DNA of 45,907 nt from Thermoleophilia bacterium (GTDB lineage Bacteria; Actinomycetota; Thermoleophilia; BMS3ABIN01). Below, one piece after another: positions 318 through 17,738 of this stretch. Within the stretch, counting starts at the first letter, position 1. Every line of letters starts with the position of its first letter. The translations under genes were made by a program, and so were the position numbers. The stretch covers positions 1 to 45,907 of the forward strand of contig JBBAAB010000001.1 of NCBI GenBank assembly GCA_041658445.1, written 5' to 3'. The notes beneath the pieces were generated by a model. The model did no database searches. It was not told the origin of the DNA and saw nothing but the letters and a program-made list of their open reading frames with translations.

Positions 318-323
318 AGATGC

Positions 324-3354: not shown

Positions 3355-3388
3355 GCGTCAAAATCGACGCATATCTCGCTTCTCGGGC

Positions 3389-4622: not shown

Positions 4623-4625
4623 CCT

Positions 4626-4913: not shown

Positions 4914-4939
4914 TCGCTCTCCTCACGGGCGTGGCGACC

Positions 4940-5065: not shown

Positions 5066-5182
5066 GGCGAGGCGTCTGGCAACTCTAAACCCAGCCATAA
5101 ACCCGACGCGATGCTGATCTCGCCACCCGCGGCGCCCGGCCTGGCGCTTCCACCATTTGTCAAACTCTTCTGTTGCGGGCAT
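4964..5182 (-). CDS. Cassette ORF a3, hypothetical protein
   Basis: ATG at 5182; reads through the 5' arm (AVEQLAEAD) and stops in the loop. Confidence 0.6.
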   Translation of the reverse strand: MPATEEFDKWWKRQAGRRGWRDQHRVGFMAGFRVARRLAVEQLAEADRPSIAKQMLEHVIDEGYIDDMPGEW

Positions 5183-5205
5183 TTCGCACTCCAGTTAGTG
5201 GCGCC

Positions 5206-5335
5206 GTTGAACGGATGCGAGCTAAGCTGCCGGGCCTTTGCAGCGGCATCCGCTGAACATGCACAATTTCTCCGTGGGATGATGCAATGATGGGGGGTGC
5301 CCACATTGGCAGGCCCGGTCAGCTTCTTGTTGGGC
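5206..5335 (-). repeat. attC-like site a2 (130 bp, Cys/His-module loop)
   Basis: Sense strand: GCCCAAC-AAG-AAGCTG[A]CCGGGCC ... GGCCCGG CAGCTT AGC-TCGCATCC-GTTCAAC. Positions 5210-5325 are a perfect inverted copy of 10798-10913. Confidence 0.8.
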
Positions 5336-5449
5336 GGCGAGACCGCGGGCATAGCCCGCCTCGAATCCCTTGCGAGAATCAAACTTGTTTGCGTCCTGAT
5401 CCACCTCGGGACTCAGCCACCACTTCTCGAACTCGCTCATCTCGGGCAT
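5222..5449 (-). CDS. Cassette ORF a2, hypothetical protein ending in module RACQCGHPPSLHHPTEKLCMFSGCRCKGPAA
   Basis: GGAGACGAGG RBS; ends at the attC TAG. Confidence 0.65.
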   Translation of the reverse strand: MPEMSEFEKWWLSPEVDQDANKFDSRKGFEAGYARGLAAQQEADRACQCGHPPSLHHPTEKLCMFSGCRCKGPAA

Positions 5450-5472
5450 TTCCTCGTCTCCTTCGGGCGACC

Positions 5473-5561
5473 GTCCAACGGATGTGAGCTAAGCCGCTCG
5501 GCTAACCCTCTTCGACCTGGAACCGCGCTTGGGCCGAGTCGGCTTCAGCGAGTTGTTAGCC
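5473..5561 (-). repeat. attC-like site a1 (89 bp)
   Basis: Sense strand: GGCTAAC-AACTC-GCT[G]AAGCCG[A]CTCGGC ... GCCGAG CGGCTT AGC-TCACATCC-GTTGGAC (15 bp stem, 2 bulges). Confidence 0.85.
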
Positions 5562-5752
5562 CGCTCACCACGGGCAATGTACCGATACGAAATTCCTTCC
5601 TCAAACTTGTAGAGGAAGCATGCGCGCCCGAGACCGTCCACATAGCCAACCTCGGTGGCGTTCTCTGAGACAACGCGGGCAACCTCACCCTTGCTATTGC
5701 CAAAGGCGGAGACCAGGAACTCGATTCTGGGAGCGTCAGTCACCTTCGCCAT
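5489..5752 (-). CDS. Cassette ORF a1, hypothetical protein
   Basis: GAGAGAGGG RBS; ends at the attC TAG (..RAA*). Confidence 0.65.
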   Translation of the reverse strand: MAKVTDAPRIEFLVSAFGNSKGEVARVVSENATEVGYVDGLGRACFLYKFEEGISYRYIARGERANNSLKPTRPKRGSRSKRVSRAA

Positions 5753-5769
5753 TCAAGACCCTCTCTCGT

Positions 5770-5791
5770 TGCGGGCTAACTAGTGATTATA
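5770..5791 (-). promoter_or_regulatory. Array-A leading junction TATAATCACTAG|TTAGCCCGC (perfect -10 hexamer abutting the first cassette; attI-like?)
   Basis: Sense TATAAT at 5791-5786, with the cassette boundary 6-7 nt downstream. No good -35. The AATCACTAGTT 11-mer is shared with 3334-3354. Confidence 0.4.
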
Positions 5792-5827
5792 CGGCCGCTG
5801 TGTAAACTTGCGCGCCGAGTGTGCAAA

Positions 5828-5947
5828 TCATGTCACAAGCCAACCGGCAACAAACCCAAGAACGAATGCCGCAATTAGTGCTAGACAGCCCACCATCTCA
5901 GTAGTGCCACAGTCTCTCTCTTCGTTTGCCACCAAGTAGTCTGTCAC
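5828..5947 (-). CDS. Possible small single-pass membrane protein
   Basis: GTGA start/stop overlap with the upstream gene; hydrophobic C-terminal half; below the size cut-off of the ORF track. Confidence 0.3.
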   Translation of the reverse strand: MTDYLVANEERDCGTTEMVGCLALIAAFVLGFVAGWLVT

Positions 5948-6162
5948 AGCCCCGCCTCCTTATCAAGCCACTCTGAAAACGCAGCCGCCTGTTGGTTCCT
6001 ACGAATAATCATACTCAGGCGGTGGGCCTCCTGCTTCTTGGACTCGTGCTTCCCGCCCCTCCCAGACCAGGGCTGTGATCCGGCAAACTCGTGCGCCTGC
6101 CGCTCCGCTATTCTCATGGCTCGGTAAACAGTCTCGAACGTCACTTCAGCCTCCTCAGGCAC
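5944..6162 (-). CDS. Hypothetical protein
   Basis: ORF co-oriented with and overlapping its neighbours. Confidence 0.5.
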   Translation of the reverse strand: MPEEAEVTFETVYRAMRIAERQAHEFAGSQPWSGRGGKHESKKQEAHRLSMIIRRNQQAAAFSEWLDKEAGL

Positions 6163-6458
6163 AGGCTAACCTCGTACTTCCTGCCATTGCACCTTACCCT
6201 CATTCCGACTGGCCACGTTCCCTCTGCCAGATCGGCCTTGAATTCGGCCTTGGAGAATACCCTCCCGGAAGGCCACAAGTCGTTCGTCTCTCTCAGGGTC
6301 TCGTAACCCGCCGGCATCTTCGGCCGTCCGCGCCTATTGGCCGCCCGGCAATCACTACAGATGCTTCGATGAACGAGGTTCTTGAGCCGCCTGTCCTTCT
6401 CGCAGAACTGCTTTTCTGGTTTGTCCCAGCCACATTGTTTGCAGGTGCGCGTGTTCAT
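6141..6458 (-). CDS. Hypothetical zinc-ribbon protein (CKQC...CSDC)
   Basis: The ATG sits 6 nt downstream of a promoter -10 (leaderless). Confidence 0.6.
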   Translation of the reverse strand: MNTRTCKQCGWDKPEKQFCEKDRRLKNLVHRSICSDCRAANRRGRPKMPAGYETLRETNDLWPSGRVFSKAEFKADLAEGTWPVGMRVRCNGRKYEVSLCLRRLK

Positions 6459-6464
6459 AACTAG

Positions 6465-6492
6465 ATTATGCGCCTGTTTCTGGGGTTGTCAA
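6465..6492 (-). promoter_or_regulatory. sigma70-like promoter, leaderless start at 6458
   Basis: Sense strand: TTGACA(6492-6487)-16 nt-CATAAT(6470-6465)-6 nt-ATG. Confidence 0.5.
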
Positions 6493-6534
6493 GCCCCTCT
6501 TTTAGCGTCTGTTGATGGTGGGCAGTAGGCGCAG

Positions 6535-6858
6535 TCATTCAAGTCCGCGGCTGAGCTTGGCGCATTCCCTGAACTCTGCCCAGTTGTCTACAATGCGCCT
6601 ATCCATTGCGCGGTTTAGCCAAGACGGAACAAGCCCGATGGCGGGACCCCCGTGAACGTGCTCCATGTGATACCGCGCCCCGGGATCAAGCGGGCGACCG
6701 CGCCAGTCTACACCGGACGCAAACAGCGCTATCACCTCTTCGTATGTGCTGGTACACGGCCTGCCCTTTTCCCGGCAATGGCAGAGGAACTTGTTCGCTC
6801 GCCCTCTCGGTGTTCTGTCCCAGACCCGTCTCTTGTCCATTTTCGCCTCGTTCCCCAT
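6535..6858 (-). CDS. Hypothetical protein, weak HNH-like motif (HMEHVHGG...WLNRAM)
   Basis: The ATG sits 6 nt downstream of a promoter -10. The motif match is weak. Confidence 0.5.
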   Translation of the reverse strand: MGNEAKMDKRRVWDRTPRGRANKFLCHCREKGRPCTSTYEEVIALFASGVDWRGRPLDPGARYHMEHVHGGPAIGLVPSWLNRAMDRRIVDNWAEFRECAKLSRGLE

Positions 6859-6864
6859 GCCGTA

Positions 6865-6892
6865 AGTCTACTCCCGTTTGGTCTTGTGTCAA
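6865..6892 (-). promoter_or_regulatory. sigma70-like promoter, leaderless start at 6858
   Basis: Sense strand: TTGACA(6892-6887)-16 nt-TAGACT(6870-6865)-6 nt-ATG. It shares GGAGTAGACT with the promoter at 324-352. Confidence 0.5.
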
Positions 6893-7194
6893 GGCGGAAT
6901 CATTTCACCTAGGCATCGTCCCGACGTAGCCTCAAACGGCGCTGGTCTTCGCTTCACTCGCCTCGGCTACGCCGTCCGGTATGCGGCGGCGAAAGTGTCT
7001 CAATTGGTTTGCCAGATGTGTGAGCCGGTTTGGTTCGGCGGCATAAGGGCACACGTTTTACCCGGCTGTCCCGCCCTGCGATCTTGTTGACGCGGTTTCG
7101 CACCCGCAGATTTGAGACTATAGGGTGTGTCATATCGTCGGAACTTCTGGACAACTACCGACATACTTGCAGACTTGTGTAAAGAGTTCTGTCC

Positions 7195-7383
7195 TCAAGC
7201 CGGCTTGTGTAAGGGCTTCGTATGCTTCTCAACAATGGCTTGCCATCGGACGAACTGCTCTCCCGGTCTTCCGGTTGTCGCGGGATACAAACGAATCCAC
7301 TTCCGATAAACCTCTACCGGGAAATGGACAATCGGCTTGCCGTTCTTGTCCTTGCAGGTGCGACAGGGCTTGCTAGCGTTCAA
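7195..7383 (-). CDS. Hypothetical small protein (CRTC)
   Basis: ORF co-oriented with and overlapping the upstream gene end. Confidence 0.45.
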   Translation of the reverse strand: MNASKPCRTCKDKNGKPIVHFPVEVYRKWIRLYPATTGRPGEQFVRWQAIVEKHTKPLHKPA

Positions 7384-7543
7384 TGTTGTGGATTGTCATG
7401 TAGCGCGCTATCGCGTGTAGAATCTCAACGCAGTCCGCGGTATCCAGCGGGCGGTCGTCGCGGTTGATGGCGCCGAGCGCGGCCTTGAGTTGCTTCGCGG
7501 CAACGCCCACCTCTTTCAGTTCTTGGTCTTCGATGACTGTCAT
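7373..7543 (-). CDS. Hypothetical small protein
   Basis: GAGGA RBS 4 nt upstream of ATG 7543. The longer track ORF would overlap the tRNA-like element. Confidence 0.5.
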   Translation of the reverse strand: MTVIEDQELKEVGVAAKQLKAALGAINRDDRPLDTADCVEILHAIARYMTIHNIER

Positions 7544-7556
7544 GTTGTCCTCTAGT

Positions 7557-7633
7557 GGTGCGGGGCCGGATTCGAACCGACTGGTCATGCCTAAATGCTT
7601 CCCCGTTCGGGCCATTTATACAGCCGCCCGCAC
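7557..7633 (-). ncRNA. tRNA-like element: intact acceptor stem and T-arm, no foldable anticodon arm
   Basis: Sense strand: GTGCGGG...GTCGG-TTCGAAT-CCGGC-CCCGCAC-C. The acceptor pairing is 7/7 bp and the T-loop is canonical. A weak D-stem is present (GCTG/TGGC). No 5-bp stem with a 7-nt loop exists in the middle 45 nt. Confidence 0.4.
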
Positions 7634-7657
7634 CATGAACCCGGAAGTCGCTCATAT

Positions 7658-7686
7658 AGATTACGCCTCATTCTAGGGAAAGTCAA
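7658..7686 (-). promoter_or_regulatory. sigma70-like promoter directly upstream of the tRNA-like element
   Basis: Sense strand: TTGACT(7686-7681)-17 nt-TAATCT(7663-7658). Confidence 0.4.
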
Positions 7687-7854
7687 GCCCTGCCCTCCGG
7701 GGACTTGCAGCTTCGCGTGCATGTCATGTATCGTTGGGCGACGGCATACACCCACAATCGGCCACATGTCAACCCCCGGCGGCATTTTGCCTACATCTGG
7801 CGTCTTGACAGCCTCTGGTTCGGGCTTATGCTGTAGGCAGCTTAGGAGGCTGAA

Positions 7855-8580
7855 ATGAGAGAAATGCAGAAGGCACTCGTACTTCCCAGCGTGAACGAGG
7901 AAAGGTTTCTGGCGATTATGTCTGGGGCCGAGGTCGCGCTGGCAGAGGCGACCGAGATGGTGGACATCCTGAATCTTCGGAGTGACGCCGACGCCTACTC
8001 AGCCATGTTGGCGGCCAAGGGGGCCGGCCCGTACGCCCAACGGGTCAAGGTCTACCAGTTGAAGTGCGAGCGGAAGGCCGGCGACATTCTCAATGTCTTT
8101 CCGGCCGGGGACGGGCCGAAACCGGCTGGCGCGCCCGCCGGATACAAGAATGCGGCCGCCGCGGCAGAAGAGCTTGGCATCACCCGCATGATGCGGCAGT
8201 CTTGGCAACGGGAGGCGCGCCTCCCGGACCGCATCTTCTCGGCCTGGGTAAAGGACCTTCTTGAAAACAACATAGAGGTATCCCAGCGCGCTCTTTTGCG
8301 CCTTGCCAGGCCAACCGTTGCGCCCTCGCCGCCCGAGAAGCCGCTGACCATTCTTGACCGCTGGGCAGAGACGCTCAAGGAACTCAGCGACATCCTGTAT
8401 TCCATCGGGACATACCGGACCGCAAAGGAAGCCAAGTTGCACCTGTCCTACGCCAAGCACGCTGTTGCCGGCGTGACCACCATGTTGGCCGACGCCAAGG
8501 CGCTGGTGCGCGGCATTCTGGATGCCTACAACGACACGGTGGGCGGAAATCTAAGCATAGCGGGCGAGACGCCCGCGTAG
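7855..8580 (+). CDS. Hypothetical protein, possible DNA-binding (HTH-like ELGITRMMRQSW)
   Basis: AGGAGG RBS upstream; 241 aa. Confidence 0.6.
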   Translation: MREMQKALVLPSVNEERFLAIMSGAEVALAEATEMVDILNLRSDADAYSAMLAAKGAGPYAQRVKVYQLKCERKAGDILNVFPAGDGPKPAGAPAGYKNAAAAAEELGITRMMRQSWQREARLPDRIFSAWVKDLLENNIEVSQRALLRLARPTVAPSPPEKPLTILDRWAETLKELSDILYSIGTYRTAKEAKLHLSYAKHAVAGVTTMLADAKALVRGILDAYNDTVGGNLSIAGETPA

Positions 8581-8588
8581 GAGAACCA

Positions 8589-8765
8589 ATGAACGAGGTC
8601 CTAGACTTCGACTCTGTGGTGATCTTCGCCGCCGCCGTCCTGAAGACGGACGCGGTGCCGGCGGAGTATGACAGCCTGCCGGAGTGGGTGAGGCAGACGG
8701 CAGAGGAACTTGTGGCGACGAGCGTGCGCTGTGGCCCAGGCTGTACTCTGGACGCGAAGCCCTAG
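8589..8765 (+). CDS. Hypothetical small protein (58 aa)
   Basis: AGGAGAA RBS 4 nt upstream; below the ORF-track cut-off; hand translated. Confidence 0.5.
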   Translation: MNEVLDFDSVVIFAAAVLKTDAVPAEYDSLPEWVRQTAEELVATSVRCGPGCTLDAKP

Positions 8766-8829
8766 CTTCAAGTCCCCGGCAGGGCTGGACGTTCTCAAGG
8801 GGTAGATTTTGTTGTGGCACATTTGGGGC

Positions 8830-8858
8830 TTGACACAGGACAAAAACGGGTTGATACT
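8830..8858 (+). promoter_or_regulatory. sigma70-like promoter in the 237-nt non-coding gap
   Basis: TTGACA(8830-8835)-17 nt-GATACT(8853-8858). Confidence 0.4.
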
Positions 8859-9002
8859 CGTGAGTGAGCCGTGCGCAGCGAGTAGGCGCTGATGGAAGTC
8901 CAGCCACACAGGCGGCCCTGAAGCCTACAGCTAAAGAGGACGCCGGTTGGCACCTGTGAGCCGAACGTGACTTCGGCCGCCCGGCCCAACTTGGAGACAG
9001 AC

Positions 9003-9209
9003 ATGAAATGTCCAACGTGCGAAGGCGAGGGGAACTGGGTCGAATTGGTCTCTATGGAACTCGGGGGCCCCGTTGTTGCATGCGGGCGATGCCATGAGAC
9101 CGGCAGGGTGAGTATTTGGAACGTTCTGCGCGAGAAATTGTGGAATATCGCCCCCGAGCGGTTCATGGACTGGTATGTGGACAAGTTCTCTCCATACAGA
9201 GAGGGTTGA
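9003..9209 (+). CDS. Hypothetical zinc-ribbon protein (CPTCEGEG...CGRCHETG)
   Basis: GGAGA RBS 6 nt upstream of the ATG. Confidence 0.6.
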   Translation: MKCPTCEGEGNWVELVSMELGGPVVACGRCHETGRVSIWNVLREKLWNIAPERFMDWYVDKFSPYREG

Positions 9210-9210
9210 A

Positions 9211-9456
9211 ATGGAAGAAGAACGTCCCAATCTACGTCCCAGGTTGAACAAAGCCCTGAGAGAGAACGCCGAACTGAGGAAGCGGCTGGAGTGGCTTGAC
9301 TCCAACTGCGGGTTCTATGTTCGCGAGGGGGGGGAACTTCTTCTGGCTGGCATTGAGTACCGGTGGTTCCCGAAGAGACACAAGACATTGAACGAGGCCA
9401 TTGACGCTGAATTACTGGTGGCTACCGCCGACTTGAAGCCGGAACAGGACGCATAG
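9211..9456 (+). CDS. Hypothetical protein
   Basis: GAGGG RBS; start adjacent to the upstream stop. Confidence 0.55.
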   Translation: MEEERPNLRPRLNKALRENAELRKRLEWLDSNCGFYVREGGELLLAGIEYRWFPKRHKTLNEAIDAELLVATADLKPEQDA

Positions 9457-9467
9457 GGAGTCTGGGC

Positions 9468-9623
9468 ATGAGGCACACAATCGGAATGGCCCTTCTTGTT
9501 GTCGGCGCTGCGGTGTCCCTGATCTGCGTGGCGTACTCGGCAATCAAAGACCACAACTGGTGGCCCGCATTTGGAATGGGCGTTTTCATGTACGCCGCAG
9601 CCTTGGCGTGGGCATTCACATAG
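9468..9623 (+). CDS. Small two-TM membrane protein (51 aa)
   Basis: GGGAGTCTGGGC RBS context shared with several genes; hand translated. Confidence 0.5.
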   Translation: MRHTIGMALLVVGAAVSLICVAYSAIKDHNWWPAFGMGVFMYAAALAWAFT

Positions 9624-9634
9624 GGGGAGGGCGC

Positions 9635-10006
9635 ATGGACTACACGCCGGGGACGCTGCGGAAGTTGCCGTATGTTCCTCGCCTGCACGAGGAGGATATC
9701 ATGGCCCACGCCGATGCGTGGCAGGCCGACCGCAAGAGGCTGCTTCAGTACGGCCAACACCTTCCGGGCTGTATGGAGCCGGGTCTTGTGGACGAAGACT
9801 GCGCGTGTGGGTGGAGAGAGGCCCGCATGGCCCTCGCGCCCAGCGATACTTCGCAAGCCAAGTCCCCGGAGGGAAACGAGTGGCCACCGAAACGTCTCGT
9901 GATTGACGGGGACAATGATCCGGTTCGAGTTCCATACGAGAACCTGTGTCCCGAATGCAACCGTGTAACCAACGGGCGACGTTGCGCCCACTGCCAAGGA
10001 GAATGA
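9635..10006 (+). CDS. Hypothetical Cys-rich protein
   Basis: GGGGGAGG RBS. Confidence 0.6.
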   Translation: MDYTPGTLRKLPYVPRLHEEDIMAHADAWQADRKRLLQYGQHLPGCMEPGLVDEDCACGWREARMALAPSDTSQAKSPEGNEWPPKRLVIDGDNDPVRVPYENLCPECNRVTNGRRCAHCQGE

Positions 10007-10008
10007 AG

Positions 10009-10626
10009 ATGATCGGCACACCGAAGACTCTCAAGGTTCATGTAAGCCGCAAGCTGGGGGACAACGAATTCGGCTCTTACGGCGTGGATGCAGAACTAGA
10101 GGTAAGCCTTCCCCCCGACGCCAATCGAGACGAGGCGTTTGACGAGAACGACGCGTGGCTGACCGCGGCGGTAGGGCGGAGCATGGCCGAGAAGAAGGCT
10201 TCGATCCAGAAGATGCAGGCAGAGGCGGCCGAGGCAAAGAAGGGGCAGACCGTTGAGGCCGAAGAGGCAGAGACAAAACAAGACAAGCCGAAGGCAGACG
10301 CAAAAGAAGGGGAGGAACTGACGTTCAAGTGTGTCAAGTTCACCCTTGCGAAGCTGCCGGACAAGAAGTTCAAGTTGGAGCTGTACCCGGAGATCAAAGA
10401 CGCGCCAGGCAAGTATCCGACGATCAAGTTCACCGCCGAACGCGAGAAGATGTGGGACATGCTGCATGATGTCGCAGACGACTACGACTTCTCGGACTTG
10501 CCCGTTGAGTATGGTTGTGAATTTCTCGTCCACTACGCCATTGGTAGAGAGTTCGAGATCAAGGCCGGAGAACACAAGGGCGAGAAGTCGCACTACAAGG
10601 ACCTTTTGTCCATCGTTGCCATGTAG
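10009..10626 (+). CDS. Hypothetical acidic/Lys-rich protein
   Basis: AAGGAGA RBS. The G of its TAG stop is the base before the first cassette boundary. Confidence 0.6.
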   Translation: MIGTPKTLKVHVSRKLGDNEFGSYGVDAELEVSLPPDANRDEAFDENDAWLTAAVGRSMAEKKASIQKMQAEAAEAKKGQTVEAEEAETKQDKPKADAKEGEELTFKCVKFTLAKLPDKKFKLELYPEIKDAPGKYPTIKFTAEREKMWDMLHDVADDYDFSDLPVEYGCEFLVHYAIGREFEIKAGEHKGEKSHYKDLLSIVAM

Positions 10627-10658
10627 TTGGGCGGTCGCCACGCCAGAGAGAGGGAACA

Positions 10659-10901
10659 GTGGACATCAACATGGCTTTAGTTGACGAGGCTAGGCGCTAT
10701 CATGGTTTCTGCGGGCACGGGGCAGACTTCGATGTGTGTACGGCGCTTGCCTGCCGTCTAGCGCGGCACATTTTTCTCGCCGCCCAACAAGTCGCTGAAG
10801 CTGACCGGGCCTGCCAATGTGGGCACCCCCCATCATTGCATCATCCCACGGAGAAATTGTGCATGTTCAGCGGATGCCGCTGCAAAGGCCCGGCAGCTTA
10901 G
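10659..10901 (+). CDS. Cassette ORF c1, hypothetical protein ending in the Cys/His module
   Basis: GAGGGAAC RBS then GTG; ends at the attC TAG (..GPAA*). Confidence 0.6.
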   Translation: MDINMALVDEARRYHGFCGHGADFDVCTALACRLARHIFLAAQQVAEADRACQCGHPPSLHHPTEKLCMFSGCRCKGPAA

Positions 10902-10917
10902 CTCGCATCCGTTAGGC
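10782..10917 (+). repeat. attC-like site c1 (136 bp, Cys/His-module loop)
   Basis: GCCCAAC-AAGTC-GCT[G]AAGCTG[A]CCGGGCC ... GGCCCGG CAGCTT AGC-TCGCATCC-GTTAGGC. Confidence 0.85.
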
Positions 10918-10938
10918 GCACCCAGAAGGAGAAGGCCA

Positions 10939-11136
10939 ATGACCAAAGAAGAGGCCCTGGCATCAGTCGAGAAGATCAGGGAAGAGGCGGATGACGATGA
11001 GGTGGCACATTCGCATGAGGATGGTCTGCGCGCCCAGTTCATTGCGCATGTGGCGGAGATGCCCGGCGAGTTGGGCGAGTTGGCCAAGATTGTTCTCTCA
11101 ACGGACGAGATTTCGTTCGGCCGCTGGTGCGCCTAA
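10939..11136 (+). CDS. Cassette ORF c2, hypothetical acidic protein
   Basis: AAGGAGAAGG RBS; the TAA stop lies inside R'' (GCCTAAC). Confidence 0.65.
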   Translation: MTKEEALASVEKIREEADDDEVAHSHEDGLRAQFIAHVAEMPGELGELAKIVLSTDEISFGRWCA

Positions 11137-11218
11137 CAACTCGCTGGAGCGGACGCCTGTTGGCGAGCCGAGTAGATCGTTAGGGTTCGGGGCGCAGCTT
11201 AGCTCCGATCCGTTGGAC
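11131..11218 (+). repeat. attC-like site c2 (88 bp)
   Basis: GCCTAAC-AACTC-GCT[G]GAGCGG[A]CGCC ... GGCG CAGCTT AGC-TCCGATCC-GTTGGAC. Confidence 0.8.
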
Positions 11219-11242
11219 GGTCGCCCGAAGTTGGAGGTTGAA

Positions 11243-11602
11243 ATGCCCGCACCGTATCTGTCTATAGAGGCAATGGCCGCATGGATTGCTCTGGACCGAG
11301 AGAACAATGGTGCCAGCAAGGAGTGGTGGGATTGGGCCGTATCCGCCTATGGTGTCGCCGCCCAACAAGAAGCTGAAGCTGACGTGGCCGTTGGATCGCA
11401 TCTGAAGCGGGTCCTGGAAGATGACGAGATCGTGGGCGAAGGGGGCTCGTTCCACATGGAGCGCATGGACGACGACCACATTTGGTTCCAGGTGGATAGC
11501 ATCGCGTTCGACCTCGATGTGAAGAGGGGCAAACTGTTGTGGAGGCCGCAGTGCAATGGGGGCTGGCCCGCTCTGGCTCTCTTGCTGGGCCACGCAGCTT
11601 AG
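11243..11602 (+). CDS. Cassette ORF c3, hypothetical protein
   Basis: GGAGG RBS; reads through the 5' arm (AAQQEAEAD) and ends at the attC TAG (..GHAA*). Confidence 0.65.
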   Translation: MPAPYLSIEAMAAWIALDRENNGASKEWWDWAVSAYGVAAQQEAEADVAVGSHLKRVLEDDEIVGEGGSFHMERMDDDHIWFQVDSIAFDLDVKRGKLLWRPQCNGGWPALALLLGHAA

Positions 11603-11618
11603 CTCCGGTCCGTTATAC
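11360..11618 (+). repeat. attC-like site c3 (259 bp, long translated loop)
   Basis: GCCCAAC-AAGAA-GCT[G]AAGCTG[A]CGTGG ... CCACG CAGCTT AGC-TCCGGTCC-GTTATAC. Confidence 0.7.
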
Positions 11619-11638
11619 GCACGGAAGATGAGGGTCAA

Positions 11639-11968
11639 ATGGACAACTTGAAAGCATGGATGTTGGAGGCTGCCGACGAGGAGCCAATCCTGGCAGTCGT
11701 GATTGGCGAGATGGGATGGGGCGACTACGGCAGCGATGCTGTGCCCCAGTATCAGGAACAGCGTCGCGGCGAGGTCCTGTCTTGGGACGAGGCCGCCCCG
11801 ATGATCGACTACGAGTTTAGATCGGGGTATGGCGCGCCGAGATGCAATGCGATTGTGGCGTGGACGGCAAGCAAGGTGATCTCGATTTCGCAGTATGACG
11901 GCTCCACGTCGGTGTTCACGCTCCCGCGCAATCCGACCGCACACATGCCCGGCATGCCGGGGGGCTAA
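11639..11968 (+). CDS. Cassette ORF c4, hypothetical protein
   Basis: GAGGG RBS; stops before the attC. Confidence 0.65.
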   Translation: MDNLKAWMLEAADEEPILAVVIGEMGWGDYGSDAVPQYQEQRRGEVLSWDEAAPMIDYEFRSGYGAPRCNAIVAWTASKVISISQYDGSTSVFTLPRNPTAHMPGMPGG

Positions 11969-11977
11969 CGCCCGTGC

Positions 11978-12066
11978 GTATAACAACTCGCTGAAGCCGA
12001 CTCGGCCCAAGCGGGGTTCAAAGTCGAAGAAGGTTGGCCACGCAGCTTAGCTCCGGTCCGTTATAC
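11978..12066 (+). repeat. attC-like site c4 (89 bp)
   Basis: GTATAAC-AACTC-GCT[G]AAGCCG[A]CTCGGCC ... GGCCACG CAGCTT AGC-TCCGGTCC-GTTATAC. Confidence 0.8.
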
Positions 12067-12089
12067 GGCTCCACGCAGGAGGTGGAAAC

Positions 12090-12281
12090 ATGAAGTACAT
12101 CAAGGTCTCTCGGAGCGACATGCCCGGCTCCTATACCGATACCCTAAAGGGGGCGGCGAATTGTGTCGAGGGGGAGTTTGACGGAATTGAGGGGGTGCCA
12201 GTCGGAACGTCTATCACCCTGACGGTGGTCGAGATGTCCGAGGAGGAATACGCCAAGTTGCCGGAGTTCGATGGTTGGTAG
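12090..12281 (+). CDS. Cassette ORF c5, hypothetical acidic protein
   Basis: AGGAGGTGG RBS; stops 2 nt before the R'' extension. Confidence 0.65.
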   Translation: MKYIKVSRSDMPGSYTDTLKGAANCVEGEFDGIEGVPVGTSITLTVVEMSEEEYAKLPEFDGW

Positions 12282-12283
12282 CC

Positions 12284-12310
12284 GTATAACAACTCGCTGG
12301 AGCGGACGCC
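12284..12310 (+). repeat. Truncated attC (5' arm only; deletion derivative of the c2-type site)
   Basis: GTATAAC-AACTCGCTGGAGCGGACGCC is joined directly to the CGCAGTTGGAGGATGAAATG leader. Confidence 0.7.
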
Positions 12311-12327
12311 CGCAGTTGGAGGATGAA

Positions 12328-12738
12328 ATGCCAGCACAAGAAGAGTTCGATTTGGAGTTCTCACGCCGAGGGAATTATGGGACGCCCAAGACGGTCTGCC
12401 GGACATGGTATGAGTTGGGATGGTTTGCCTCACGGCGCGCCGCCCAACAAGAAGCTGACCGGTGCCCAGACCGCGGAGAGGAGGCATGGCGCGCAGTGTT
12501 GGATTTGTGCGAGCCTCTACGGCCCGACGAGACAGGAATTGGAAGGCTGTTGGGCATTCGTGCGTGGGCGCTTTCGGCGCTTGCAGAACTAGAGCCCGAC
12601 AAACAGTGTGCCTGCGGTCGAGAGGGTTCGCTAGACCACGAGGACTTCTGCATGCCCAAGGGGATGTGGCCGAGGCATTGGATAACGGGGGGGGCTATAG
12701 ACCCCGATGCCGCCCCCAAGGAGAAGCCCAATGGCTAA
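12328..12738 (+). CDS. Hypothetical protein containing an orphan attC 5' arm (12438-12463)
   Basis: GGAGGATGAA RBS; internal CGCCGCCCAACAAGAAGCTGACCGG is translated as AAQQEADR. Confidence 0.6.
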   Translation: MPAQEEFDLEFSRRGNYGTPKTVCRTWYELGWFASRRAAQQEADRCPDRGEEAWRAVLDLCEPLRPDETGIGRLLGIRAWALSALAELEPDKQCACGREGSLDHEDFCMPKGMWPRHWITGGAIDPDAAPKEKPNG

Positions 12739-13009
12739 CGGACCCCTAAGTGAACGAATGCTTGAGGAAGCCTATGTCGGCGGCGTCGCCGGATGGGACG
12801 ACATGATTGACGAGGTATCCAAGATGGAGGCCCGCATCGAGGCGCTGGAGGAGGTAGAGGATGCGGCACGCCCCATTTCAGAATGGGCGCATGAACAGTA
12901 TGAAGTCCGCGGCGTTATGACCGCCGGGGGAACAGCGGAAGATGCCGCTCTAATCGACCTTGTGAAGTATCTCGATCAATGTTTGGCCTCCCTCGCGGGG
13001 AGGCCATGA
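12731..13009 (+). CDS. Hypothetical protein
   Basis: GGAGAAG RBS. Confidence 0.55.
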   Translation: MANGPLSERMLEEAYVGGVAGWDDMIDEVSKMEARIEALEEVEDAARPISEWAHEQYEVRGVMTAGGTAEDAALIDLVKYLDQCLASLAGRP

Positions 13010-13407
13010 GTGAACTAGAGGCATTCTTCGGGCCGTCAGAGGGAGCCAGTCATATGCCGGATCATGTCCGACGCACCTCCTGGCCGCGTCAGCCGGAACA
13101 TCTAAGGCGTATCCTGGATGTGTTTCAACAGGAGGCCGGGTTTGAGCCGATTGGCGTCCTGAAACAAACATGGATTGCCGGCGCCAAGGCATGGCACTCT
13201 GTATTCGGTGAAAACACCTCTCTATTGATAATGGCCATTGAGTACATGAGACAGAAGGAGTTGATGATTGCCTCTCCGAGGTCGTGTATTACAGTGGCCT
13301 TAGAGTTACAACGTAAGGGAGAGGGGCAGAGTAAGGCCGACTACTTCCGCGAATATGCCAAGAAGTTAGACGCTGCCGCGGACTTGGAAGTAGACGAGGA
13401 AGACTAA
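13006..13407 (+). CDS. Hypothetical protein
   Basis: ATGA coupling; GGGGAGG RBS. Confidence 0.6.
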   Translation: MSELEAFFGPSEGASHMPDHVRRTSWPRQPEHLRRILDVFQQEAGFEPIGVLKQTWIAGAKAWHSVFGENTSLLIMAIEYMRQKELMIASPRSCITVALELQRKGEGQSKADYFREYAKKLDAAADLEVDEED

Positions 13408-13422
13408 GGAGTCTGGGCGACT

Positions 13423-13674
13423 ATGAACACTCCGGAGCGCGTTGGAAGATGGGCGCTGGGCGACATAGCCGAGAGGAAGCACGATAGGAAGTTGTATCGC
13501 GTAGTCGGGTTCATTCTCCACCCGGCGGTTGCGTTTGCCCCGCTAGACGATGGGCCGGAAATGGTTCAAGTTGCCGGATGCCCAAATGAGTTGAACGAAT
13601 TGGTATGCTATACTCCGTCGCCCAACGATACTTTGGGCGCGGACCAAACGAACAAGTCCCCGGCAGGGGCATAA
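13423..13674 (+). CDS. Hypothetical protein
   Basis: TAAGGAGTCTGGGC RBS context. Confidence 0.6.
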   Translation: MNTPERVGRWALGDIAERKHDRKLYRVVGFILHPAVAFAPLDDGPEMVQVAGCPNELNELVCYTPSPNDTLGADQTNKSPAGA

Positions 13675-13689
13675 GGGAGGAGGACGGGG

Positions 13690-13860
13690 ATGACTGAACA
13701 CCTAACCCCCGAGGACGTTGTGGAAGAAGTCAAGAGGATCGTCTGGGTCAATCCAGACGATTACAGGCAGGCACTGGACCAGTTGGACGACATAGCCGAT
13801 TTGGTCAAGAAGTGCCGAGTTAATTCTGATGCCCCGAAAGGGGATGGGAAGGAGGAATAG
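13690..13860 (+). CDS. Hypothetical small acidic protein (56 aa)
   Basis: GGGAGGAGGA RBS; hand translated. Confidence 0.5.
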   Translation: MTEHLTPEDVVEEVKRIVWVNPDDYRQALDQLDDIADLVKKCRVNSDAPKGDGKEE

Positions 13861-13861
13861 A

Positions 13862-14206
13862 ATGTCTGTAAACCTGTTGAGTGTTGCCGCCGTCACCACC
13901 GTCATCTCGCTGATCTTCACGATTCTTGTGCAGTATTTCCCGGTAATCAACGTGAAGTGGGGCGGCCTGCCCAAGGAGACGAAGAAGTATGTCGTCCTGG
14001 GCGGGTACATCGTCGTCGGAGCCGTCGTTGCATGGGGAGGCTGTCTTGACCTGCTGGTCAAGTTCATCCCGCAACTTTTGTGTGTCGAGCCGGCCGCGTT
14101 CCTGGACTACCTTGGCGGAGTAGTCATCGCCGTTGGTTTGGGCCAGGGCGTGTTTGGTTTGGCGCCAGAAGCCGAGGCCGTCAAGTTCGCAAAATCCTTG
14201 CGGTAA
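13862..14206 (+). CDS. Multi-pass membrane protein (holin-like? speculative)
   Basis: GGAGGAATAG RBS; three hydrophobic segments. Confidence 0.55.
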   Translation: MSVNLLSVAAVTTVISLIFTILVQYFPVINVKWGGLPKETKKYVVLGGYIVVGAVVAWGGCLDLLVKFIPQLLCVEPAAFLDYLGGVVIAVGLGQGVFGLAPEAEAVKFAKSLR

Positions 14207-14222
14207 GAAAGGAGTCTCGGGC

Positions 14223-14357
14223 ATGTTTGTGGCAGTGTCGGCGCCAAACCCGGCCTGCCAACTGGCGGGGTGGCGTGGTGGCCACGTCGGAGAGTTGCCA
14301 ACCGAATGCGTAAGGGGCCGAGGGGACACCAACCCCCATCGAGGCTCCCCAGGCTGA
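14223..14357 (+). CDS. Possible small protein (44 aa) inside the GC-rich gap
   Basis: AAAGGAGTCTCGGGC RBS context matching other genes. The composition is unusual, so this is uncertain. Confidence 0.3.
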   Translation: MFVAVSAPNPACQLAGWRGGHVGELPTECVRGRGDTNPHRGSPG

Positions 14358-14441
14358 GGTCGGTGCCGTCGAAACGGCATGGTGCAATCCGGGCAACGGG
14401 GTAGGCCGGGTGGGGAATCCGGCCCCCGCCAATTGGGAGGA

Positions 14442-14735
14442 ATGATGAAAGACGCCATTCGCACAAGACTGCGCCAAGAGATTGAGGCGGTCGGCAAGCA
14501 GGCGGAGATAGACCGGGCCTCCTATGTGTCGGCCAAGGAGTTGGCGGACATGCTTGGCCCGAACATCAGGAACACAAACGCCCTATCCGGTATCATCAGC
14601 GGCCTTGGCATCAAGACGATAGGCCGCAGGCGATCCGGAGAGCGCAACGCCTGGATGACTGAGGAGCAGGCGAGGCTTGTCATCCGAGAGGTCCTATCAC
14701 ATCCGGCGCGAACTCACACAGGAGACCAAGGGTGA
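14442..14735 (+). CDS. Hypothetical protein, possibly DNA-binding
   Basis: GGGAGGA RBS. Confidence 0.55.
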   Translation: MMKDAIRTRLRQEIEAVGKQAEIDRASYVSAKELADMLGPNIRNTNALSGIISGLGIKTIGRRRSGERNAWMTEEQARLVIREVLSHPARTHTGDQG

Positions 14736-15613
14736 TTATCCACAAGTACAAAACGCAGCCCGTCGAGGCCGAGACGCCGTTTCAACTGGCGTCCAATCAG
14801 CAAATCCTGCTAATGCCCGTTGGAGATATTCACTACCTGAGCCAGGACTGGCCGCAGAACAAGGTCCTCGATCATTTCAAATGGGGCATGGACAGGGGGG
14901 CATACTTCCTGGGAGTTGGGGAGCCGATTGATCTTGCCTCCGCATCTCAAAGGGCCATCATGTCTCCGCTGAGGGATAGCGTCAAGAAGGAATTGAATGG
15001 ACTAATGACCGACGTGGTCGAGAGGTTTGTGAGGCTGCTGGATTTCACCAGGGGAAGGTGGATTGGCTTCATGGAGGGGGACCACTACTGGATGTTCGAG
15101 AACGGGACGACGACTGACCAGATGATTTGCACCTACATGGGGTGCAAGTTCCTTGGGGATGCGTCCTTGATTCGACTCACCTATCCGGAGGCCCCCAGGG
15201 CGCACCCGGAGGCAGACTGTATCATCTACGCCCACCACGGCTTCGGATCGTCTAGACTTTCCGGAGGGCAGTTGCACAGAGTTGAGGACCTGCTGAAGTT
15301 CATCGACGCCGACATCTACCTTATGGGGCACAGTCACGCAAAGGTCAGCGCGCCGATTGATCGGCAGGCCGTAACCCCCGATGGGGTTCACCACCACAGG
15401 ACGAAGGTCCTTGCCCGCACCGGGGCATTTATGAAGTCCTATCTATCCAGTGCTCCTCTTGGTCTAGACGAGCCCGCAGTTAGAAGTCGCGCATCCTATG
15501 CCGAGAAGGCCGCCTACATGCCCGCGGCAATGGGCGGGTTGTGCTTTGGTATCGGCTACGAGAAGATACCGGGGTCGGCGTATTACAGGCCAACAATCCA
15601 TTATTCCGTGTAG
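14732..15613 (+). CDS. Calcineurin-like metallophosphoesterase
   Basis: Motifs GDIH, GEPID, HHG and GHSH occur in canonical order; GTGA coupling. Confidence 0.75.
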   Translation: MIIHKYKTQPVEAETPFQLASNQQILLMPVGDIHYLSQDWPQNKVLDHFKWGMDRGAYFLGVGEPIDLASASQRAIMSPLRDSVKKELNGLMTDVVERFVRLLDFTRGRWIGFMEGDHYWMFENGTTTDQMICTYMGCKFLGDASLIRLTYPEAPRAHPEADCIIYAHHGFGSSRLSGGQLHRVEDLLKFIDADIYLMGHSHAKVSAPIDRQAVTPDGVHHHRTKVLARTGAFMKSYLSSAPLGLDEPAVRSRASYAEKAAYMPAAMGGLCFGIGYEKIPGSAYYRPTIHYSV

Positions 15614-15622
15614 GAGCGGCGT

Positions 15623-15850
15623 ATGCGAACATTGAGGCAGGGCGAGTCATATCCAATTGACAGGCGGGTGTCTTTGGAAGAGCAGCTAAAGAACATGCAC
15701 AAGAAGTTCCTGCTGAAGCATGGCAACAAACCAGTATTGGTAGTCTGGCATCCGGGGAAGTACAGGAAGGATACGATAGACCTCCCAGTAGACACGAGCA
15801 TTCAAGAGGGCACGTTCTGGTTCGAGTGCGCGGAGAAGCAAAAGAAATGA
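15623..15850 (+). CDS. Hypothetical protein
   Basis: AGGAGCGG RBS. Confidence 0.55.
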   Translation: MRTLRQGESYPIDRRVSLEEQLKNMHKKFLLKHGNKPVLVVWHPGKYRKDTIDLPVDTSIQEGTFWFECAEKQKK

Positions 15851-16284
15851 GGGCGCGCGACTGGGTCAGCGCAATCTACGACACCGAGGAGATTCTTGGC
15901 CTCTACTGGCGCTGGCCGTTCGTTGACATGGCGGACATGATAGCAACGTGGGACGCCATCAAAGCCTCTCCGGCGTGGCTTGAGTATGCGGGGGAGGGGC
16001 CGTGGCCGCTGGAGTTCCACCGAGAGCACAGGTGGCGCGTGGATACCGGAATTCGTCGCATTCGTGGGACTTGGGTGTTCGACGTGGGGGTTGGAATGGC
16101 CTGCGGGGGAACCCTGCTCCATGAGGTTGGTCATATTCCTGGATGGAGGCGCAGCAAGCCGCACGGCGACGGCTTCTTGAGGCTGTGGCTTGCTCTATGG
16201 AAACAGGAGGCGCGGACTATAACGTGGAACGCTATAGTTGAGCAGCTTCGCAAGGGCGGAGTTCCGGTAGAGGAGTTCGTTTGA
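15847..16284 (+). CDS. Putative zinc metallopeptidase (HEVGH)
   Basis: HExxH motif LLHEVGHIPG; ATGA coupling. Confidence 0.55.
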   Translation: MRARDWVSAIYDTEEILGLYWRWPFVDMADMIATWDAIKASPAWLEYAGEGPWPLEFHREHRWRVDTGIRRIRGTWVFDVGVGMACGGTLLHEVGHIPGWRRSKPHGDGFLRLWLALWKQEARTITWNAIVEQLRKGGVPVEEFV

Positions 16285-16514
16285 TCTGGGCGTTGCTGTT
16301 CCTCGCGGGCCTCATCAGTGAGGCGCTGGTAACTGCGCAGACGCTTGCCATCCAGAAACGAAAAGCCGCCGGAGCGGCGGTCCTGGCGTTCTTGGGCTGG
16401 GGACTGTGGGGGCTGGCCCTCGGAGAGCTAGTCATCAATCGGGCAAACGTTATCCCCTTTGCCCTCGGGGCGGCCATTGGAACGCTGGTTGTGGTTTGGC
16501 GGCGAAAAGAATAG
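16281..16514 (+). CDS. Small two/three-TM membrane protein
   Basis: Hydrophobic throughout; last gene of the plus-strand module. Confidence 0.55.
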   Translation: MIWALLFLAGLISEALVTAQTLAIQKRKAAGAAVLAFLGWGLWGLALGELVINRANVIPFALGAAIGTLVVVWRRKE

Positions 16515-16564
16515 CCTCGCAGGGGCGCTTTCTGGCCATTCTGCGGCGTTTTGGGGCAGTTGCC

Positions 16565-16843
16565 CTAAAGCGCCACGACGAACTTCCATAGCGTCTCTCC
16601 CCAGACAACGACCTGCTGGAGATGCGTTAGCAGCAGGAAGCCCCCGACGGCAAGCCATATCTTCCGTTCCTTCTTCCAGTTAGCGTCGCGCTTTGCCAAT
16701 GCGTCTTTCGTGGCGAAGCAATCCAACTTCTTGTAGACAACGGCCAATGCGCCCCACAACATCGCCCGAGAAAGATTGTCGGGCACCTCGTCGTTGTCCA
16801 TCTTCTGGCGCACCTCTGCGAACAGGCCGTTGCCGTCTGCCAT
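16565..16843 (-). CDS. Lysis-associated membrane protein (C-terminal TM; holin/spanin-like, speculative)
   Basis: GGGGGA RBS; lies immediately downstream of the endolysin. Confidence 0.5.
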   Translation of the reverse strand: MADGNGLFAEVRQKMDNDEVPDNLSRAMLWGALAVVYKKLDCFATKDALAKRDANWKKERKIWLAVGGFLLLTHLQQVVVWGETLWKFVVAL

Positions 16844-16844
16844 T

Positions 16845-17585
16845 CTATCCCCCAATCTCTGGATGGAGTTTCTCAAGTCGAGAGACTCGTTCTTCGATGG
16901 TTAGCGGCGGCTTGAAGCCGTCTAGTATCCTGTCGTCAAATGTGTTGAAGTCCTGCGCGCCACTGGCCCACGGATACTTACCCGGATTAGGAATGTCCCC
17001 CGCCCACTGCCAGCCGATGACGTTCTCTCGCGGAACACCGGGAGGTAGCGTTCTCGGGCCGGGCCAGTAGGGATTGAAGTTGGCCGGGATGGGTTCCTTG
17101 TAGAACAAGTACGCGGCAAAGACGAATTGGTAGTCCTTCGCCCACGAGACATCGCCAATGTTGTCTTTCCACCAGTAGACACCCGTGTAGACGATTGGCC
17201 TTCTAAGAAAGTCCTGTTCAATGCCCAACAGGTAGTCGTGGACGTGCGTCCGCTTCTTCGCCAGCGGTATTGTATTGTTCGGCGGCTCGAACGGGTGCTG
17301 CTCGATGTCCGCAAACGGAGGCAAGGGAGTGGGTTCTGGTGCGCACTTCTTGAACCACGCCGCCTGTGACGGTGCGGTCGCGGTCATCTTGAGGAAATGG
17401 TACGGCCCAAACGGCGCAACAGGAAGACACGCCAGCCTCTTGGACTGGTACGTCTTGTCTTGCATCCCATTTCCCTGCGTGCCCTCGCCGGCCTTGAAAT
17501 AGAACACAGACTGCCCGCTCTTTACCGCCAGCGCAAAGTCAACCGTTTCGTTGTAGTGGGAGTAGTCTTGGCCTTGAACGGTCAT
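16845..17585 (-). CDS. GH25-type muramidase endolysin
   Basis: DYSHYN..FYFKAGEG..GPYHF..WQWAGD pattern typical of glycoside hydrolase family 25. Confidence 0.75.
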   Translation of the reverse strand: MTVQGQDYSHYNETVDFALAVKSGQSVFYFKAGEGTQGNGMQDKTYQSKRLACLPVAPFGPYHFLKMTATAPSQAAWFKKCAPEPTPLPPFADIEQHPFEPPNNTIPLAKKRTHVHDYLLGIEQDFLRRPIVYTGVYWWKDNIGDVSWAKDYQFVFAAYLFYKEPIPANFNPYWPGPRTLPPGVPRENVIGWQWAGDIPNPGKYPWASGAQDFNTFDDRILDGFKPPLTIEERVSRLEKLHPEIGG

Positions 17586-17728: not shown

Positions 17729-17738
17729 GTGAGACTCC

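Follow-up and report, generated by a model that had tools for sequence, protein, structure and literature searches.

The DNA analysed here, referred to as the window, is a stretch of 45,907 nucleotides (contig JBBAAB010000001.1 of assembly GCA_041658445.1), and its genes for an SU10-type major capsid protein, a large terminase, a portal protein and a GH25 endolysin mark it as a phage genome. Our subject is array C, a run of small genes on the plus strand (10626-12463) in which open reading frames (ORFs) are combined with repeats resembling attC, the recombination sites of integron cassettes. Array C holds four complete attC-like units, one truncated unit and one lone 5' arm, and all six units listed by the first-pass annotation are present. 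As that annotation also held, the array starts at the stop codon of an upstream backbone gene (ATGTAG|TTGGGCGGTCGCC). Each of the cassettes c1 to c5 consists of one ORF and one attC; all cassette ORFs of the array run on the plus strand, in the same orientation as the attC top strand, and a GGAGG-like ribosome-binding site precedes each of them just behind the GTT junction. Two further arrays, A and B, lie on the minus strand, which bears out the suggestion that attC orientation follows local transcription and that the arrays are mirror images around a central segment. The whole genome carries 13 complete and 4 partial attC sites in the three arrays (Table 1).

The units share the layout RYYYAAC - 5 nt - GCT[G]AAGCNG[A]C...loop...GCTTAGC - 8 nt - GTTRRRY, which corresponds to the R'', L'', L' and R' of an integron attC, where L'' carries two bulged bases at a distance of six pairs. 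The R''/R' pairs of the four complete units of array C are GCCCAAC/GTTAGGC, GCCTAAC/GTTGGAC, GCCCAAC/GTTATAC and GTATAAC/GTTATAC, and the sequence GCT[G]AAGCTG[A]C... of one arm faces ...CAGCTT-AGC of the other. The spacers measure 5 nt and 8 nt, compared with 5 and 6 nt in aadA7, and the 8-nt spacer is also found in Anaerolineae sites near intI. The 3' arm motif GCAGCTTAGCTCCGNTCCGTT, with up to three mismatches allowed, occurs nine times in the window, with 0.00 copies expected from 100 shuffles, and the 5' arm motif occurs 13 times (1.16 expected); the copies, at 1.9-5.6 kb (minus) and 10.7-12.3 kb (plus), are confined to three blocks at 5.8-4.0 kb (minus), 3.35-1.94 kb (minus) and 10.6-12.5 kb (plus).

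The two arms behave as the sides of a hairpin. In an alignment of 22 phage attC arm pairs (A3), including sites whose arms lie 190-286 nt apart, 88.5% of the cells are paired. The covariation score of this alignment is 0.332, compared with 0.150 in shuffles, and none of 500 shuffles was as good; there are 64 double-change cells (26 in shuffles), with compensatory changes at 9 of the 16 stem pairs. The pairs that depart from Watson-Crick geometry are mostly A.C on the top strand, which is G.T on the bottom strand, and the bottom strand is favored by 14 to 5. Therefore, the bottom strand folds better, as in attC, and a role at the RNA level becomes less likely. The arms of c1 and c3 are paired at 16 of 16 positions with two bulged bases each. 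The bottom strand of the c1 attC folds into R-box, L-box and bulge (z -3.2), and a construct of only the c3 arms (11360-11395 and 11582-11618, with about 200 nt of coding loop between them) folds with a z of -4.0. No Rfam family matched at gathering thresholds.

The cassettes differ in how gene and attC are joined. The attC loop of c1 encodes a Cys-rich tail, and the c1 stop codon is a TAG within L'; the c2 ORF ends at a TAA inside R''. The c2 protein matches phrog_10733 (E 6e-13), and the c4 protein matches phrog_21631 (E 7e-8). Decay is visible at the 3' end of array C. Of its attC, c5 retains only R'', L'' and the start of the stem, and after 12310 the sequence resumes like the leader behind the c2 attC, which implies a deletion between the repeats GACGCC and GTCGCC; c5 is fused to the remnant c6. 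The ORF of c6 contains an in-frame lone 5' arm (12438-12463, reading AAQQEAD) and no 3' arm, and its leader and N-terminal MPA motif are paralogous to those of c3.

Counterparts of these sites lie beside bacterial integron integrase genes. A scan with the arm pattern derived from the window, in which each bacterial species was represented by one genome, gave 77 loci in metagenome-assembled genomes (MAGs) of many phyla, mostly Anaerolineae/Chloroflexota and Proteobacteria. At 7 of the 77 loci, a gene about 50% identical to IntI1 lies within 8 kb, and in every case it diverges from the sites' top strand, the canonical layout of integrons; the integrases of three of these loci score 432-458 bits on the NCBIfam model TIGR02249 "integron integrase" (cut-off 265). 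We built a covariance model (R1) from 42 bacterial attC sites, the hairpin of which shows strong covariation and is paired in 92.6% of the cells; none of 500 shuffles did as well. At the seven loci with an integrase, R1 found 54 sites in arrays, at 20-89 bits and all on the expected divergent strand, and the majority of them had not been picked by the initial pattern. A covariance-model search had been proposed with the first description of array C, and on the plus strand R1 matched c2 (11130-11219, 57.9 bits, E 1.9e-16) and c4 (11977-12067, 63.9 bits, E 1.9e-18). For c1 and c3, only local or arm-only matches were obtained: c1 (10795-10901) reached 16.5 bits as a local match because of its long loop, and the matches at 11359-11397 (10.8 bits) and 12283-12352 (16.3 bits) are essentially 5' arms only, as is the match in c6. 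In the other arrays, R1 matched at 5562-5472 (73.3 bits) in array A and at 2866-2776 (62.1 bits) and 3180-3074 (28.7 bits) in array B.

The boundaries of the cassettes carry the mark of recombination at G|TT. If crossover takes place there, the first bases of a cassette were once the R' of its own attC and should complement its own R''. Among 21 units from the window and the related phage contig L001, R'' fitted its own cassette start better than the next junction in 11, equally well in 7 and worse in 3. For c1 to c5, the matches to the own start were 6, 9, 6, 10 and 9 of 10 positions, and those to the next junction were 4, 4, 2 and 5. Cassette c2 starts with GTTAGGCGCACC and has the R'' GGTGCGCCTAAC (9/10); c4 starts with GTTATACGCACGG and has CCGTGCGTATAAC (10/10 scored positions, or 13/13 including GTT); and c5 starts with GTTATACGGCT and has AGCCGTATAAC (9/10). 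Consistent with this, the c2 attC folds at -25.3 kcal/mol (z -3.1) when circularised in silico and at -19.5 kcal/mol in array context, and the c4 attC at -25.5 (z -4.1) and -16.4 kcal/mol. The minimum-energy folds of the short units in array context did not give the attC hairpin, since the R' in the array belongs to the next cassette; the circularised forms fold well. One cassette of array B, 3073-2783 on the minus strand, is also present in the related contigs L085/L146 at 88% DNA identity; its start and end are TATACGGC and GCCGTATA in one phage and TAGGCGGC and GCCGCCTA in the other, so both ends have changed together. Additionally, the c1 attC is 100% identical, except for one 6-nt indel, to the array A site 5341-5212 on the minus strand, and the identity stops exactly at GTT. 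The own-start complementarity, this identity end and the wobble bias are indirect signs of a crossover at G|TT, which an integron integrase would perform via the folded bottom strand.

Comparison with related phages revealed cassette turnover between conserved flanks, as the first-pass annotation had anticipated. The protein of the upstream flank, 10009-10626, has homologues of 46-71% identity in related phage contigs. In L085 (65% identity), the homologue is followed by five attC sites on the same strand; in L083 and L084, it is followed by a putative entry site (see below) and a cassette start. Contig L146 overlaps L085 at 100% identity and extends to a homologue of 12979-13407 (79% DNA identity, L146 1703-2032), which begins right behind the last attC junction, GTTAGGCAGGAGG. 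The downstream flank had been placed from 12731 onward; this part did not hold, and the conserved flank starts at 12979. Between these flanks, L085 and L146 carry cassettes for a 62-aa protein, a shared 67-aa protein, a 179-aa methyltransferase-like protein, a 70-aa protein and a Cys-rich protein, none of which (0/5) is present in array C. The methyltransferase-like protein (L146 477-1016) has a DPPY motif and a weak match to Methyltransf_11 (E 9e-4, just below the cut-off). A further replacement is seen between L118 and L146, two contigs of sister samples. From one attC onward, the 977 nt compared agree at 99.2% identity; upstream of this shared attC the two differ by one cassette, and the R'' of each of the different cassettes matches its own start. 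In L081, a relative with 52% identity, no attC was found. L001 and L080, which belong to one phage, share 27-60% protein identity with the window in a few genes, and their attC and cassette DNA is 81-95% identical to it. The Logan contig L079 equals window positions 5529-10826 at 100%, and both of its ends break inside arrays. The arrays recur in independent assemblies and samples (L079, L083, L085, L146, L118 and L001).

The heads of the arrays share a sequence of their own. The sequence (T/G)AATCACTAG|TT heads arrays A and B of the window and the arrays of L083 and L084, that is, four starts in three phages, and the bases behind it are cassette-specific (TTAGCCC, TTCGACGG, TTGGGCGG and TTATACGG). 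L085 has a related form, TATAACTAGTAG|TT, in which GTATAAC-TAGTA-G|TTATAC is a perfect R''/R' palindrome. Repeated insertion at a single primary site would leave just such a constant left half beside a right half that varies, and the head sequence may therefore be an attI-like entry site adjoining a promoter. Its left half, GTA(T/G)AAT, resembles a -10 box and a degenerate R''; a sigma-70 promoter scan did not call the entry site, and the promoter reading of GTAKAAT is one of resemblance only. As a candidate counterpart of attI and Pc, the conserved site with its -10-like hexamer is found at the heads of A, B, L083 and L084 and is absent at array C. In the relatives, 60-110 nt ending in GAATCACTAG|TT lie between the stop codon and the first cassette, and in array C the stop TAG is joined directly to TTGGGCGG, which suggests that array C lost its entry region by deletion between two TAG triplets. 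Given the missing entry region, array C would be transcribed by read-through. The relatives also have a palindrome, TTTACACAGCAAACTGTGCA, on the 5' side of the entry site, which may be an operator.

The phage does not seem to supply the recombinase. Pfam (all ORFs of at least 250 aa and most of at least 150 aa) found no tyrosine recombinase, tblastn with four integron integrases against the closed genome gave none (best E 0.12), and no TIGR02249-like or Phage_integrase protein is encoded in it, so the adjacent divergent intI of a complete integron is missing. The window ends in an exact 127-nt direct repeat (1-127 = 45781-45907), the usual signature of circular closure, and the genome of about 45.78 kb is probably complete. 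Because no integrase is encoded in an apparently complete genome, the arrays count as CALINs in the sense of IntegronFinder (attC clusters that lack an integron integrase) and not as complete integrons; array C has four complete attC within 1.3 kb. The earlier view that the units of ORF and attC behave as cassettes, with R'' matching the own start and content turning over, thus stands with this amendment. The enzyme must then be supplied from outside the phage, and the most obvious candidate would be an integron integrase of the host. We also observed that in IMG/VR at least 86 "viral" contigs (loci L194-L273) have genes for proteins that share 42-59% identity with integron integrases of bacteria. 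Among these is L202, from the metagenome (3300009285) that also yielded the relatives L001, L084 and L085; neither an attC like those described here near its integrase gene nor any link to the phage was found.

Overall, we propose that array C is an integron-type cassette array in an apparently complete integrase-less phage genome, on which a host integrase acts in trans, and we put the probability of this explanation as a whole at roughly 0.8. The sequence, structure and covariation of the attC sites, their pattern matches in real integrons, the G|TT signature and the turnover between conserved flanks carry it. That the units are integron-type cassettes is, in our judgment, very likely; that a host integrase currently moves them is a weaker claim, toward which we lean. 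Each cassette spans from TTRRRY to the G of the next G|TTRRRY and comprises an attC, one small phage gene and the ribosome-binding site of this gene. In the putative mechanism, an integron integrase encoded by the host would act in trans while the phage infects the cell, bind the folded bottom strand of attC and exchange strands at G|TT. Cassettes would leave as circles and reinsert at another attC or at the entry site GTAKAAT-CACTA-G|TT, and as a consequence early accessory genes may be shuffled between arrays, co-infecting phages and possibly host integrons. Host IntI is presumably the enzyme, and recombination is presumably still ongoing.

Some ORFs run through the attC sites. An R'' of GCCCAAC or GTCGAAC lacks the TAA that GCCTAAC provides, and the ORF reads through the site. 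The frame is fixed: it translates GCC GCC CAA CAA... as AAQQxAEAD, runs on across the loop and ends at the L' TAG (...AA-stop). This frame is open in nearly all of the long loops (about 60-230 nt) of the window and L001; two ORFs end about 10 nt before L', and where L' is GCTCAGC the TAG is missing and the ORF reads on past the site. The arms stay complementary despite these long coding loops. The loops encode C-terminal modules, for example, the Cys-rich tail ACQCGHPPSLHHPTEKLCMFSGCRCKGPAA, which is found in c1 (10659-10901) and in 5449-5222 on the minus strand. In these two genes, the tail is joined to unrelated N-terminal parts.

Several observations weigh against the proposal of an integron-type array served by a host integrase. 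On the top strand, the first bulged base is a G (a C on the bottom strand), which is the reverse of aadA7 and TJE1, with C on top and G on the bottom. At 259 nt, the c3 attC exceeds the usual range of 57-141 nt, into which c1 (136), c2 (88) and c4 (89) fall; the same holds for several sites of 190-286 nt from arrays A and B and from L001. In c2 and c4, L-box and stem positions are mismatched, as if arms had been swapped, and the c4 3' arm equals that of c3 and mismatches its own 5' arm. The arm scores of R1 are not fully independent because its training sites were chosen by a pattern derived from the window, and R2, a small and low-powered model of six experimentally validated attC sites, gave weak matches (E 0.13-5), of which five of the six listed lie on units. 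Several homology breakpoints are at the 5' arm and not at G|TT, which IntI does not explain: the N-terminal part of c3 is 81% identical to L001 at the DNA level and the homology ends at the 5' arm, and in the cassette shared with L146 the homology extends only up to L''. The indications of the host are at odds: the NCBI bin is Thermoleophilia, while the 8-nt spacer gives the attC a likeness to the Anaerolineae type. Finally, tblastn of 50 ORFs from the phage array regions against sampled non-phage loci found no shared cassettes, and its few matches were to probable phage relatives (L169, L102, L092 and L101).

The breakpoints at the 5' arm and the mismatched arms of c2 and c4 point to homologous exchange at the conserved arms, by which the loop and the 3' arm are swapped independently of the N-terminal gene part. 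The question is whether such exchange is the only process. In the strongest alternative, the attC-derived repeats no longer serve an integrase and are short conserved linkers through which general homologous recombination, by enzymes of the phage or the host, shuffles modules, much like the boundary sequences behind mosaicism in other phages. Such linkers would account for the end of the c3/L001 homology, for the restriction of the L146-shared homology to the part up to L'', for the identity of the c1 attC with 5341-5212 even though the N-terminal gene parts differ, and for the borrowed 3' arm of c4; the genome has no integrase, and the stretch separating arrays A and B contains the gene of a NinG/Rap-like recombination nuclease. 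However, linkers would not explain why R'' complements the opening 7-10 bases of the cassette it belongs to and changes in concert with them, why stems 190-286 nt apart keep their compensatory pairing, or why the wobble pairs favor the bottom strand. We therefore regard this alternative as unlikely, and homologous exchange probably acts alongside site-specific recombination rather than replacing it.

A second alternative, that the hairpins work as RNA, as intercistronic stem-loops for processing, stabilisation or attenuation of the early transcripts, starts from the position of the units between or at the ends of co-oriented genes and from the top strand being the mRNA sense strand. The wobble bias runs the other way, since the transcript would fold worse than the bottom-strand DNA. 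The units were not flagged in a terminator scan, the Rfam search was equally silent, the complementarity of R'' to the cassette start has no RNA rationale, and the same arm pattern flanks bacterial integrase genes; a role as RNA is thus very improbable. The repeats are least of all a mere protein motif (AAQQxAEAD...GPAA-stop) of a paralogous family or the product of a phage/bacterial-integron chimeric contig: many 5' arms do read AAQQxAEAD in one frame and many ORFs do end at the L' TAG, but the units of c2, c4 and c5 are no less conserved although they lie outside or behind ORFs, the covariation of the arms is that of a hairpin, and the arrays occur at three places, in both orientations and between phage genes, recur in independent assemblies and samples and sit on a contig that closes on itself. 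A CRISPR-like array was ruled out, as the units are imperfect palindromes of variable length.

An integron-type array is an element of a kind already known from phages. The screen of 10,705 phage genomes by Qi et al. 2023 (PMC9892861) yielded 3 complete integrons, one In0 and 17 CALINs, the phage CALINs having 2-4 predicted attC sites each. In that study, IntI1 recombined phage-borne attC in vitro and in vivo, and five of six attC from virulent phages recombined with attI1 under IntI1. The CALINs of Tetrasphaera phage TJE1, phage PH101 of Pseudoalteromonas and phage P12002L of Polaribacter are like the present arrays in having ORFs between attC, co-oriented cassettes and no integrase. The unit layout is the same as that of the aadA7 and TJE1 sites in the supplement of that study (PMC9892861). 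Methyltransferase cassettes are known from those phage CALINs, as here from L146, and TJE1 also has an inverted pair of GTTRRRY-like boxes at its array boundary, comparable to GTATAAC-TAGTA-GTTATAC in L085. In contrast, the known phage CALINs (PMC9892861) form one cluster each, compared with three arrays of 13 complete and 4 partial sites here, and they differ from the present case in its putative entry site common to relatives, its phage early genes with PHROG matches, its documented turnover and its long coding loops. Prophage Va_90-11-286_p16 of Vibrio anguillarum likewise has many attC (16), but it is temperate and captured a piece of the host chromosomal integron, with which it excised (PMC9892861); here, the arrays extend across the early region of an integrase-less phage, contain phage genes and form a lineage-wide arrangement. 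In the literature, we found no later report of larger or lineage-wide phage attC arrays than those of Qi et al. 2023.

Sedentary chromosomal integrons in Anaerolineae and proteobacterial MAGs (L055, L007, L071, L040 and L051) have the same attC architecture, with arms AACAAsTCGCTGrAGC...GCTyAGCTC and the same two bulges 6 bp apart, and the Anaerolineae sites have the same 8-nt spacer before R'. They are likewise composed of homogeneous attC and unrelated ORFs in a single orientation. The phage differs from them in lacking intI, in having three short arrays in a virus and in an R'' that is often GCCCAAC and not GCCTAAC. Short sequences that shuffle phage modules are known as well, namely the promoter-early stem-loops of T4-like phages and the boundary sequences of lambdoid phages. 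These too are short repeats between small early genes with homology breakpoints at the repeats, but here there are a full attC architecture, the G|TT signature of circular cassettes and counterparts beside integron integrases.

What is new is the scale, the lineage-wide arrangement with turnover, the conserved putative entry site beside a -10-like box, the use of phage genes as cassettes and the protein-coding loops, which reach about 230 nt. In bacteria, integron cassettes are chiefly known for carrying antibiotic-resistance genes, and their occurrence in phages was described only recently and as small clusters; here, much of the early accessory genes of a phage lineage is arranged in cassettes, and replacement is documented between near-identical genomes. 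Integrase-mediated cassette exchange may thus be a regular route of phage mosaicism and a bridge to bacterial integrons. Members of the c4 gene family occur in two forms, in a cassette or as ordinary genes: the family comprises about 100 clusters, and its homologues in the phage-size contigs L188, L190 and L191 lie in tight operons without attC. The occurrence of one gene family with and without attC bears on the birth of cassettes. Arms that remain complementary across 100-230 nt of coding sequence bear on the limit of loop growth and on recombination sites as protein-coding linkers. We tentatively speculate, with less confidence than in the array itself, that an integrase-less phage lineage adopted the cassette system as a platform for accessory genes, with a promoter-overlapping attI-like entry, dependence on a host integrase, phage genes turned into cassettes and in-frame arms with exchangeable C-terminal modules. 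If so, it would be a natural system in which to study cassette birth, as the attachment of attC to a gene is an unsolved problem of integron biology.

Table 1. Positions of the arrays, cassettes, entry sites and phage marker genes in the window (entry sites of related phages in the coordinates of their contigs)
Feature	Position	Strand	Remarks
Backbone gene immediately 5' of array C	10009-10626	+	stop TAG abuts first G|TT junction; homologues in related phages
First junction G|TTGGGCG	10626-10632	+	no promoter/operator-like entry region, unlike relatives
Cassette c1	10627-10911	+	ORF 10659-10901 (80 aa) reads through own attC 10782-10917 (136 nt)
Cassette c2	10912-11212	+	ORF 10939-11136 (65 aa); attC 11131-11218 (88 nt)
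Cassette c3	11213-11612	+	ORF 11243-11602 (119 aa); attC 11360-11618 (259 nt)
Cassette c4	11613-12060	+	ORF 11639-11968 (109 aa); attC 11978-12066 (89 nt)
Cassette c5	12061-12310	+	ORF 12090-12281 (63 aa); truncated attC 12284-12310
c6, cassette remnant fused to c5	12311-12738	+	ORF 12328-12738 (136 aa)
First conserved backbone gene 3' of array C	12979-13407	+	homologue in L146
Array A	4025-5789	-	entry site TAATCACTAG|TTAGCCC at 5789-5778
Array A, attC R'' starts	5561, 5335, 5065, 4727 (5' arm only), 4145	-	
Array B	1940-3353	-	entry site GAATCACTAG|TTCGACGG at 3353-3342
Array B, attC R'' starts	3187, 2865, 2624 (5' arm only), 2486, 2156	-	
Entry site, L083	6581-6592		
Entry site, L084	3957-3968		
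Entry site, L085 form	~3536-3562		
Entry site consensus			GTAKAAT-CACTA-G|TT; sequence GTATAATCACTAG|TT
attC spacer			TCGCATCC
SU10-type major capsid protein	27900-29039	-	
Large terminase	38508-40136	-	
Portal protein	36662-38518	-	
GH25 endolysin	16845-17585	-	

Transcription diverges from the central segment, with the genes at 1-7.6 kb on the minus strand and those at 7.9-16.5 kb on the plus strand. Within positions 1-18000, the GC skew follows the direction of transcription, and its sign flips near 7 kb and near 17-18 kb. In chromosomal integrons, the attC bottom strands are reported to be on the leading-strand template. If 7 kb were a bidirectional origin, the attC bottom strands of the three arrays would also be on the leading-strand template; the skew itself is inseparable here from the effect of transcription.

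Searches for close relatives of the whole phage were negative. No GenBank phage showed near or distant DNA similarity to the window, IMG/VR searched with a backbone protein and with the large terminase gave no close relative, and exact-protein look-ups of the c4 protein and the protein of the gene at 12979 found no record. A tRNA scan found none. Among the other genes, the NinG/Rap-like ORF (3700-3389, minus strand; Pfam PF05766, E 1.1e-6) belongs to the recombination-associated nuclease family of lambda and lies within the non-cassette gap that separates arrays A and B. A LAGLIDADG endonuclease ORF (786-349, minus strand; Pfam E 5.7e-15) and an HNH endonuclease ORF (45372-44830, minus strand) may each be a homing endonuclease. 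A separate family of 47-nt repeats (..GACTTGAAGC..TAAGGAGTCTGRGC), bearing no relation to the attC repeats, occurs three times on the plus strand, at 1576-1622, 9421-9467 and 13372-13418, and two of the three copies lie at gene junctions of the plus-strand operon.

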